Positions 39,409-39,735 of a stretch of DNA of 64,000 bases are shown piece by piece. The notes beneath the pieces were generated by a model. That model saw nothing but the letters and a program-made list of their open reading frames with translations. It searched no databases and had not been told where the DNA came from. The stretch lies in NCBI GenBank assembly GCA_963664395.2, contig OY761159.2:2400001-2464000 (forward strand), written 5' to 3'. The position numbers and the translations under genes were made by a program. Numbering within the stretch: position 1 is the stretch's first letter; each line of letters begins with the position of its first letter. Source of the DNA: Candidatus Binatia bacterium (GTDB lineage: Bacteria > Desulfobacterota > Binatia > Bin18).

Positions 39409-39438
39409 AAAAAAGGCGACCTTTCCGGAAAGGCCGCC
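39409..39438 (-). terminator. Rho-independent terminator
   Basis: Minus strand GGCGGCCUUU-CCGG-AAAGGUCGCC-UUUUUU. The G-U pair would be an A-C mismatch on the plus strand, which fixes the orientation. Confidence 0.85.
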
Positions 39439-39735
39439 CTCTTTGGTGCGCGTTATGCGCTGAGAATTGACTGTCAGTTGTCTATGCTGTCTGCCCGACC
39501 TGGCGGTAGTACAGCAGGCTTGTTCTTAACCCTGGCTGCTCCGGACTGTTCTCAATCCGTTTTTCCGGTGGCCTTCTCTTGTTAGTCGACCGTTTCCGGC
39601 CCCGTACTTTCGAGCACGACAGTCAGGCCGGGTCTGAGCATCAAGGGAGCGAACAAAACAGCCACTGTATAGCGTGGATGCTGCCCACCGTCGGCGGGCG
39701 GGTATATTCCGGCGGATTTTCCATTCGCACCTCCT
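39409..39735 (-). ncRNA. Candidate highly structured RNA of unknown class
   Basis: Nested long-range helices, several hairpins (one with a GAAA tetraloop), two potential pseudoknots, and its own terminator. The 5' end is uncertain. Confidence 0.6.

Follow-up and report, generated by a model that had tools for sequence, protein, structure and literature searches.

The Binatia are abundant uncultured bacteria of soil, sediment and sponges. A search of the full-text literature, supplementary files lying outside its scope, returned no report of a non-coding or structured RNA from Binatia or Binatota. The window discussed here is a stretch of 64,000 nucleotides (nt) from a Candidatus Binatia genome (assembly GCA_963664395.2, contig OY761159.2, positions 2,400,001 to 2,464,000 of the forward strand), and all coordinates below are positions in it. 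Between 39406 and 39735, on the minus strand, the window carries one copy of a previously undescribed Binatia RNA family, which is structured and bears a small open reading frame (ORF). This copy is probably a 5'-truncated member, and the family, with a unit length of about 375-416 nt, probably represents stand-alone dual-function RNA genes, in which a small-protein mRNA and a structured RNA are combined at once. An earlier note, made from the letters of the window alone, had proposed a novel non-coding RNA at this place. That proposal stands insofar as the element is unassigned, conserved, structured and absent from Rfam. Its purely non-coding character does not stand as well, the 5' third being a conserved Shine-Dalgarno (SD) site, ATG and open frame. 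The SD site, the ATG with its open frame, the TTGACA box upstream and the 5' truncation were all absent from that first account.

Read 5' to 3' on the minus strand, the segment 39406-39735 presents AGGAGG, an ATG six bases on, a frame of 27 codons, a series of hairpins, a GCGC hairpin, and a G+C-rich hairpin followed by a U run. The individual parts, with the evidence for each, are the following.

39749 to 39754, minus strand: TTGACA box (-35-like), read from the sequence and homologous to the box retained in relatives.
39736 to 39737, minus strand: junction of a deletion of about 85 nt specific to this genome, located by alignment of upstream regions and by 5'-extended sequences.
39730 to 39735, minus strand: Shine-Dalgarno AGGAGG, invariant in 19/19 congeners, with GGAGG retained across families.
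39641 to 39724, minus strand: mini-ORF of 27 codons (ATG 39722-39724, TGA stop 39641-39643), open in 19/19 congeners.
39710 to 39715, minus strand: invariant Pro-Pro codons of the mini-ORF.
39683 to 39699, minus strand: hairpin H1 (GCCCGC-loop-GYGGGC), starting exactly 10 nt past the Pro-Pro codons, a fixed spacing used in the pattern scans.
39564 to 39632, minus strand: three-way junction with closing helix GCCU/AGGC plus CCC/GGG, then a purine-rich AGAAGG strand (RNAalifold on 19 copies, cross-family covariation).
39602 to 39619 and 39584 to 39601, minus strand: two hairpins inside the three-way junction.
39542 to 39559, minus strand: hairpin CGGAUUG-loop-CAGUCCG, paired within the genus and kept in the R1-fitted alignment.
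39511 to 39539, minus strand: hairpin GCAGCCAGG...CCUGCUG (RNAalifold, pair counts, R1-fitted alignment).
39448 to 39460, minus strand: small GCGC-loop-GCGC hairpin directly before the terminator, also found in G143, G167 and members of family f4.
39406 to 39447, minus strand: intrinsic terminator, a long G+C-rich hairpin then a U run (folding energy, RNAalifold compensatory pairs).

The 5' end of the window copy departs from that of its relatives. In 18/18 congeners the conserved block starts about 110 nt upstream of the ATG, and contains the TTGACA box, two hairpins and a UCCUCC able to pair with the SD. The window copy is without about 85 nt of this 5' domain, namely the two hairpins and the upstream CCUCC anti-SD. 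Because of this deletion, its TTGACA box lies only 30 nt from the ATG, as against 108-130 nt in most members. Either a genuine deletion or an artefact of assembly may account for the missing stretch. The boundaries proposed earlier are right for this genome, whereas relatives start about 85-110 nt further upstream. In the family's full units the structured 5' domain measures about 90 nt, and past the junction comes another structured domain, of about 150 nt.

The element folds far more strongly than its composition would give. The segment 39405-39760 (minus strand) reaches a minimum free energy of -140.1 kcal/mol (z = -4.53), and 0/100 shuffled sequences fold as well; together with conservation in congeners, this bears out the strongly folding minus-strand element proposed earlier. 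Within the genus, RNAalifold predicts 102 pairs on 19 copies, 10 of them with compensatory changes. Hairpins described in the earlier note recur in these 19 copies: GUGCU/AGUAC is paired in every one and invariant, GGCCG-GAAA-CGGUC is kept, CGGAUUG/CAGUCCG is paired in 94% of cells with one compensatory pair, and GCAG..CUGU in 95%. The small GCGC hairpin is paired in 100% of cells, with one compensatory pair, and is kept across families, while the element's own terminator hairpin shows several compensatory pairs. The long-range pairings fared otherwise. The 9-bp enclosing helix CCCGGCCUG/CAGGUCGGG has two central pairs broken in 17/19 congeners and a third broken in 6/19, and the AUGCU/AGCAU helix exists in 2/19 copies only, the other 17 having a 5-nt gap there. 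In place of a helix enclosing four hairpins, a covarying three-way junction closes round the first two only. The double pseudoknot of the 3' tail and the GGUGCG/CGCACC pairing likewise find no support, with 86.8% of cells paired in the real alignment and 86.8% in shuffles, and one pair changed on both sides.

Conservation of the fold extends well beyond the genus. Two covariance models were built: R1 from the 19 congeneric copies, and R2 from seven copies of family f4. The cross-family test covered the alignable 5' two-thirds of the element, using R2-fitted alignments and a structure that we wrote ourselves. With 23 sequences, changes on both sides were found in 25/37 pairs. With 76 distinct sequences the figure is 27/37, against 16.8 +/- 1.7 in shuffles, none of 500 reaching it, a result in favour of a conserved structure. 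In the same 76 sequences there are 304 compensated cells, compared with 77.8 +/- 7.3 in shuffles, and 95.8% of cells are paired, compared with 41-46% after a shift of the 3' partners by 1-3 columns. The best-supported parts are the 5' hairpin, the stem beside the SD and the three-way junction, whose closing helix and two hairpins together have 14/15 pairs changed on both sides across families. The helix that holds the SD is paired in 95.5% of cells, and its adjoining helix covaries. H1 is paired in 99.6% of cells and shows no covariation, because it is almost invariant. Applied to 44 rows that include distant members, the R1 structure has changes on both sides in 80/93 pairs.

Some features belong to one subfamily. 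Copies of the f4 type contain a candidate 5' pseudoknot, GAUCCAU with RUGGAUC, in which 80.3% of cells are paired and five pairs changed on both sides. Its support is modest, as 55/500 shuffles reach the same number, and it is absent from the window copy. A joint model of both subfamilies was abandoned, since the MAFFT alignments A3 and A4 place the two junction hairpins in different registers.

No described RNA accounts for the element. A cmscan run with Rfam 15 gave 0 matches at gathering thresholds in the 64-kb window, in agreement with the earlier failure to assign the RNA. At E <= 10, the segment 39200-40000 gave three chance-level matches only, one of them just the terminator, and nothing relevant appeared in four full-length congeners or in five members of other subfamilies. 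Several individual identities were considered, and none was adopted. An origin from RNase P RNA came into question because of the word GGAAAGUCCG, which the two share and which a hairpin precedes; the genome has an RNase P RNA of its own at another place (284 bits), and the local alignment to it scores 24, which is at chance level, shuffles giving 20.0 +/- 2.5 with a maximum of 31. Some subfamily peptides end in Ala-Ala, as a tmRNA tag might; ARAGORN found nothing in 38500-40500, and the genome's tmRNA is elsewhere (180.9 bits). 6S RNA is rod-like and the element is multi-branched; the Rfam 6S model found nothing in the genome, a model that detects 6S in only 5/14 known genomes. A mobile or viral origin was set aside as well, there being no match to the element in E. 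coli, phage and plasmid collections, and 0 motif matches in viral contigs.

The family is spread through one lineage of bacteria. By blastn against 60 relatives, the element is present in 18/27 genomes of the same genus (75-93% identity) and in 0/33 genomes of other genera. With R1, full-length copies were located in two more genera of the same family (G143, 118 bits; G177, 27 bits), and one in another family (G167, 22 bits). With the G167 copy as a blastn query, 7/81 genomes of family f4 are reached. In a class-wide sample of 151 genomes, R2 finds the element in 6/8 f4 genomes and in 1/2 genomes of family f17; in a phylum-wide sample it finds it in 0/151. With the strict filters applied to sets of more than 40 genomes, each model misses the subfamily of the other, which makes such genome counts lower bounds. 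Scanning one genome per species with a degenerate motif gave at least 15 model-confirmed loci among the 80 matches listed, all 15 in metagenome-assembled genomes (MAGs) labelled Candidatus Binatia, delta proteobacterium, Thermodesulfobacteriota or Syntrophobacter. The motif with an ATG, scanned in metagenomes, gave at least 61 loci confirmed by R2 (E <= 1e-4) among the 80 matches listed. The organisms are MAGs, and the labels are those given by the collections. Judged from these sequences, the family is, among the searched genomes, restricted to one GTDB class, whose members bear the NCBI labels 'Candidatus Binatia', 'delta proteobacterium' and similar. One f4 genome (G146) was seen to hold two diverged copies on different contigs (L076 and L080; 52 and 38 bits with R2), with differing mini-ORFs and the same motif.

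The signals that bound the element suggest an independent transcription unit, with its own predicted promoter and terminator and with divergent or convergent genes on its flanks. A TTGAC box lies upstream of the ATG in 29/30 members examined, the 30th having too little upstream sequence, and TAnnnn follows about 17 nt downstream of the TTGAC(A) box. A hairpin with a U run (dG <= -12 kcal/mol) closes 25/30 members. At the apex of this terminator (for example window 39420-39432, and L042, L062 and L068), a near-palindrome of UUCCCGGGAA type is kept across genera and families, a conservation that is unusual for a terminator loop. At 16 further loci an ORF of 100 codons or more comes next downstream; it is convergent at 12 of them and lies 200 nt or further off at the remaining 4. 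ORF calling for this count was crude, taking the longest ORFs only. Neighbours also differ between subfamilies and belong to unrelated Pfam families (arylmalonate-decarboxylase-like, Metal_resist/Spy-like, YCII, MFS and deaminase), with Lon and what is presumably an MlaC-like gene, its name read from the sequence, as further neighbours.

This arrangement bears on a cis-acting leader, either a riboswitch or a leader-peptide attenuator, that would control read-through of the terminator into a downstream gene. In the window that gene would be an orphan of 68 codons (38984-39190, minus strand), which is conserved in 19/19 congeneric loci, lies on the same strand, and stands about 36 nt past the RNA terminator in 8/19, apparently its ancestral position. 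The U tract of the terminator is weak in most congeners, and Pro-rich leader ORFs that sense translation, such as mgtL and mgtP, are known. However, 0.2-1.1 kb is inserted before the 68-codon gene in 11/19 loci, this genome included, and the RNA is equally conserved in the congeners with an insert. The gene is absent beside copies in other genera, and the next gene is usually convergent, which argues against a leader or riboswitch. No operon comes after the element, and some 190 nt separate the mini-ORF stop from the terminator downstream of it. The riboswitch or antiterminator of the earlier note meets the same difficulty, the unit being stand-alone and its downstream gene varying by lineage. 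The segment proposed as antiterminator sits in what appears, without a formal count, to be the most variable stretch of alignment A2, and no conserved antiterminator was found. We regard a cis-acting leader as quite improbable.

The 5' third of the element reads as a conserved open frame that is probably translated. Every member has GGAGG, an ATG 5-11 nt on, and then Ser/Thr-Pro-Pro-(Asp/Glu/Gly), in which Pro-Pro is invariant; the hairpin GCCCGC-N5-GYGGGC follows exactly 10 nt past the Pro-Pro codons. The SD and ATG lie inside a hairpin whose 3' strand is formed by the Ser/Thr-Pro-Pro codons. The pattern used to scan genomes demanded no ATG, and the scan is therefore a test of its conservation: among the matches listed, 15/15 confirmed loci have a single ATG between SD and Pro-Pro, in frame, whereas of the other 65 of the 80 listed loci only 3 have such an ATG, and 2 of these 3 are Binatia MAGs with the same peptide type. 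The distance from ATG to Pro-Pro is 6, 12 or 15 nt. Across 74 distinct complete members, counted from the ATG to 20 nt before the junction, frame 0 contains a stop in 0/74, while frames +1 and +2 contain stops in 45/74 and 49/74. The frame is 25-57 codons long, and its stop ends -3 to +20 nt from the 5' strand of the junction closing helix in 59/74, most commonly with a one-base overlap with that strand or 5 nt before it. Both Pro codons differ between members at the wobble base, and variation at two neighbouring codons is codon-like (GAN, NAN). Within the genus, the first 11 codons are invariant, synonymous sites included. Constraints at the level of RNA and of translation thus seem to overlap in the mini-ORF region, and the pattern of the frame makes translation likely.

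Pfam has no family for any of 26 peptides examined, and a profile search of 5.8 billion proteins recovered them as only seven unnamed clusters. In alignment, the peptides are polar and rich in Pro, Gly and Arg, without a hydrophobic segment.

If the frame is translated, one account would be an ordinary small-protein mRNA, with the micropeptide as sole product and the hairpins serving to stabilise the transcript and tune its translation. The in-frame ATG, the stop-free frame 0 and the position of the stop would all follow, and hairpins at both ends with a terminator are usual in stable bacterial mRNAs. Yet about 200 nt of covarying structure lie past the stop, the nucleotides of the junction and H1 are far more conserved than most of the peptide, and within the genus the first 11 codons do not vary, synonymous sites included. 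On balance, a plain mRNA is unlikely. Another rival would be a hok-like type I toxin mRNA, about 400 nt long, with a sequestered SD, pairing between 5' and 3' ends and a small toxic peptide. The element is of similar size, its SD and ATG are sequestered, and on the congeneric copies RNAalifold pairs the ATG region with the distant 3' tail; but the peptides are of the wrong character, polar and without a hydrophobic segment, and by-eye inspection found no long-range pairing evident in other families. A hok-like toxin is very improbable.

The opposite account would make the element a pure non-coding structured RNA that acts via its fold, for instance through protein binding, as a ribozyme or as a riboregulator; GGAGG, ATG and CCNCC would serve the structure, and the frame would be open only as a consequence of conserved RNA sequence. 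Much of what favours it weighs at the same time against the dual-function RNA gene that we prefer. GGAGG can pair with CCNCC or CUCC in the conserved SD hairpin described above, which explains part of the 'codon' conservation at the RNA level. In the Ser/Thr codon, conservation is highest at the third base (U in 54/56), and the H1 codons vary like a hairpin and not like codons. Conservation of the peptide is poor in its C-terminal half (mean column identity 28%), where changes within the genus are mostly non-synonymous, and the peptides belong to no Pfam family. Further cautions concern the dual-function gene. The pattern used in metagenomes demanded an ATG, although not its frame, and counts such as 74/74 are not independent events, because the members are related. 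On the side of structure, pairing is favoured by the fitting of the counted alignments to models; the control with shifted partners and the variety of pair types argue for a real fold signal. Between families the 3' domain aligns poorly, which would make a shared trans-acting function there conjectural; the window copy, without its 5' domain, could be impaired, or its deletion an assembly artefact; and the 68-codon gene adjoining the terminator in 8/19 congeners may leave room for a cis effect within the genus.

Against the non-coding account stand several features of the frame. The ATG keeps its place 5-11 nt past GGAGG and its frame with Pro-Pro in 15/15 loci among the matches listed, changes in spacing come in multiples of three, frame 0 is stop-free in 74/74 while the other frames are not, and the position of the stop tracks the junction despite ORF lengths of 25-57 codons. 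A pure non-coding RNA therefore appears rather unlikely, and a gene that is both messenger and structured RNA remains the probable reading. As its output, such a unit may deliver the micropeptide, a 3' domain that acts in trans, or the two together.

A mechanism can be proposed for such a dual-function gene. The RNA would be translated, and would act as a small-protein mRNA and as a structured RNA. The sequestering of SD and ATG in their hairpin would limit initiation, as would the 5' domain in relatives. To pass along the frame, a ribosome would have to open H1 and, on reaching the stop codon, the helix that closes the junction; translation and the native 3' fold would therefore be mutually exclusive at any moment. 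A pause at Pro-Pro-Asp/Glu/Gly, the type of motif at which E. coli ribosomes pause under limiting EF-P (elongation factor P), could set the duration of the ribosome-occupied state. PPD, PPE and PPG are among the EF-P-dependent pause sites listed for E. coli (Elgamal et al. 2014, PMC4140641). In Salmonella, the short ORFs mgtL and mgtP of mgtA and mgtCBR contain consecutive Pro codons, and progress of the ribosome that depends on EF-P or Pro-tRNA is reported to pick the RNA structure (PMC5299641, PMC6460261). A pause at the invariant Pro-Pro is plausible, because these tripeptides are pause motifs and EF-P-dependent Pro-codon leader ORFs are known in Salmonella.

Taken further, the element may be a stand-alone ribosome-gated riboregulator, in which the dwell time at Pro-Pro would report the status of EF-P or prolyl-tRNA, making the RNA a trans-acting sensor of translation capacity without a tied downstream gene. 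As the ORF extends from the SD hairpin to the foot of the three-way junction, dwell time would determine the state of the 3' domain, folded (active) or melted. We attach a small probability to this extension. The likeness to mgtL and mgtP is in the short ORF with consecutive Pro codons. Both mgtL and mgtP lie in the 5' leaders of defined genes and act on adjacent alternative stem-loops, whereas the Binatia RNA is without a conserved downstream gene and has its terminator about 190 nt from the stop.

The closest kind among known systems appears to be the dual-function (coding) small RNA, a class that includes SgrS/SgrT, RNAIII/hld and SR1/SR1P, and by sequence the Binatia RNA has no homology to any described family. 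Like these, it has its own promoter and terminator signals, a length of a few hundred nt, several hairpins and a frame in the region of 25-50 codons. Unlike them, its frame is marked by an invariant Pro-Pro and the family is confined to one uncultured class; a frame that ends at the foot of a three-way junction is not known from these three. Similarity to hok-type mRNAs lies in a length of about 400 nt, a sequestered SD and a translation governed by folding of the whole transcript; in difference to them, the Binatia peptide is not hydrophobic, there is no homology, and no antisense partner came to light, although no search aimed at an antisense promoter was made. A further comparison can be made with raiA, OLE, GOLLD, ROOL and HEARO, which are also lineage-restricted, supported by covariation and a few hundred nt long. 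All of these are in Rfam, their function having been unknown at discovery, whereas the Binatia RNA matches no Rfam family. No conserved translated frame is known from any of them.

The DNA around the element shows some further peculiarities. For the 68-codon gene, Pfam and NCBIfam have no family, and only 48 protein clusters contain it, all at least 65% identical. Between the terminator and this gene, window 39191-39405 is an insert of about 215 bp with an imperfect direct repeat, TTTTGGTT / TTTTGGCT, on its flanks; in other congeners the same place holds an insert of another kind, about 1.1 kb long, and the site directly after the terminator looks like an insertion hot spot. On the other side, a 319-codon gene with a Staphylococcal nuclease domain (39888-40847, minus strand) lies between an EVE-domain gene and the RNA, and is likely a recent insertion, because among the 19 congeneric loci it is found in this genome only. 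In the f4-type loci L110, L155, L158, L073 and L067, the gene that lies divergently upstream encodes in each case one of a set of homologous proteins of about 190-240 residues, which represents local synteny only; Pfam Metal_resist (Spy/CpxP-like) matched the neighbour in L110, the sole member scanned. Further along the window, two adjacent AhpC/TSA-like ORFs (37368-38096, minus strand) share a frame and are split by a single TGA at 37767-37769. The pair is a candidate selenoprotein, a predicted thioredoxin fold of 242 residues in which the TGA, read as selenocysteine, would be the first position of a CxxC-like motif, W-U-P-Y-C; no family of selenocysteine insertion sequence (SECIS) elements in Rfam matched it.

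The Binatia thus gain a new structured RNA, which is well supported and whose covariation spans at least three GTDB families. Its architecture is unusual, with a conserved Pro-Pro mini-frame that starts inside the SD hairpin and ends at a three-way junction. There is also a lesson for annotation, as an apparently 'intergenic' stretch of about 1.1 kb contains a real gene. If translation is confirmed, the lineage would possess a micropeptide of its own, found throughout and almost never reported by gene callers, and the family would offer a natural system for studying how ribosomes remodel a structured RNA.

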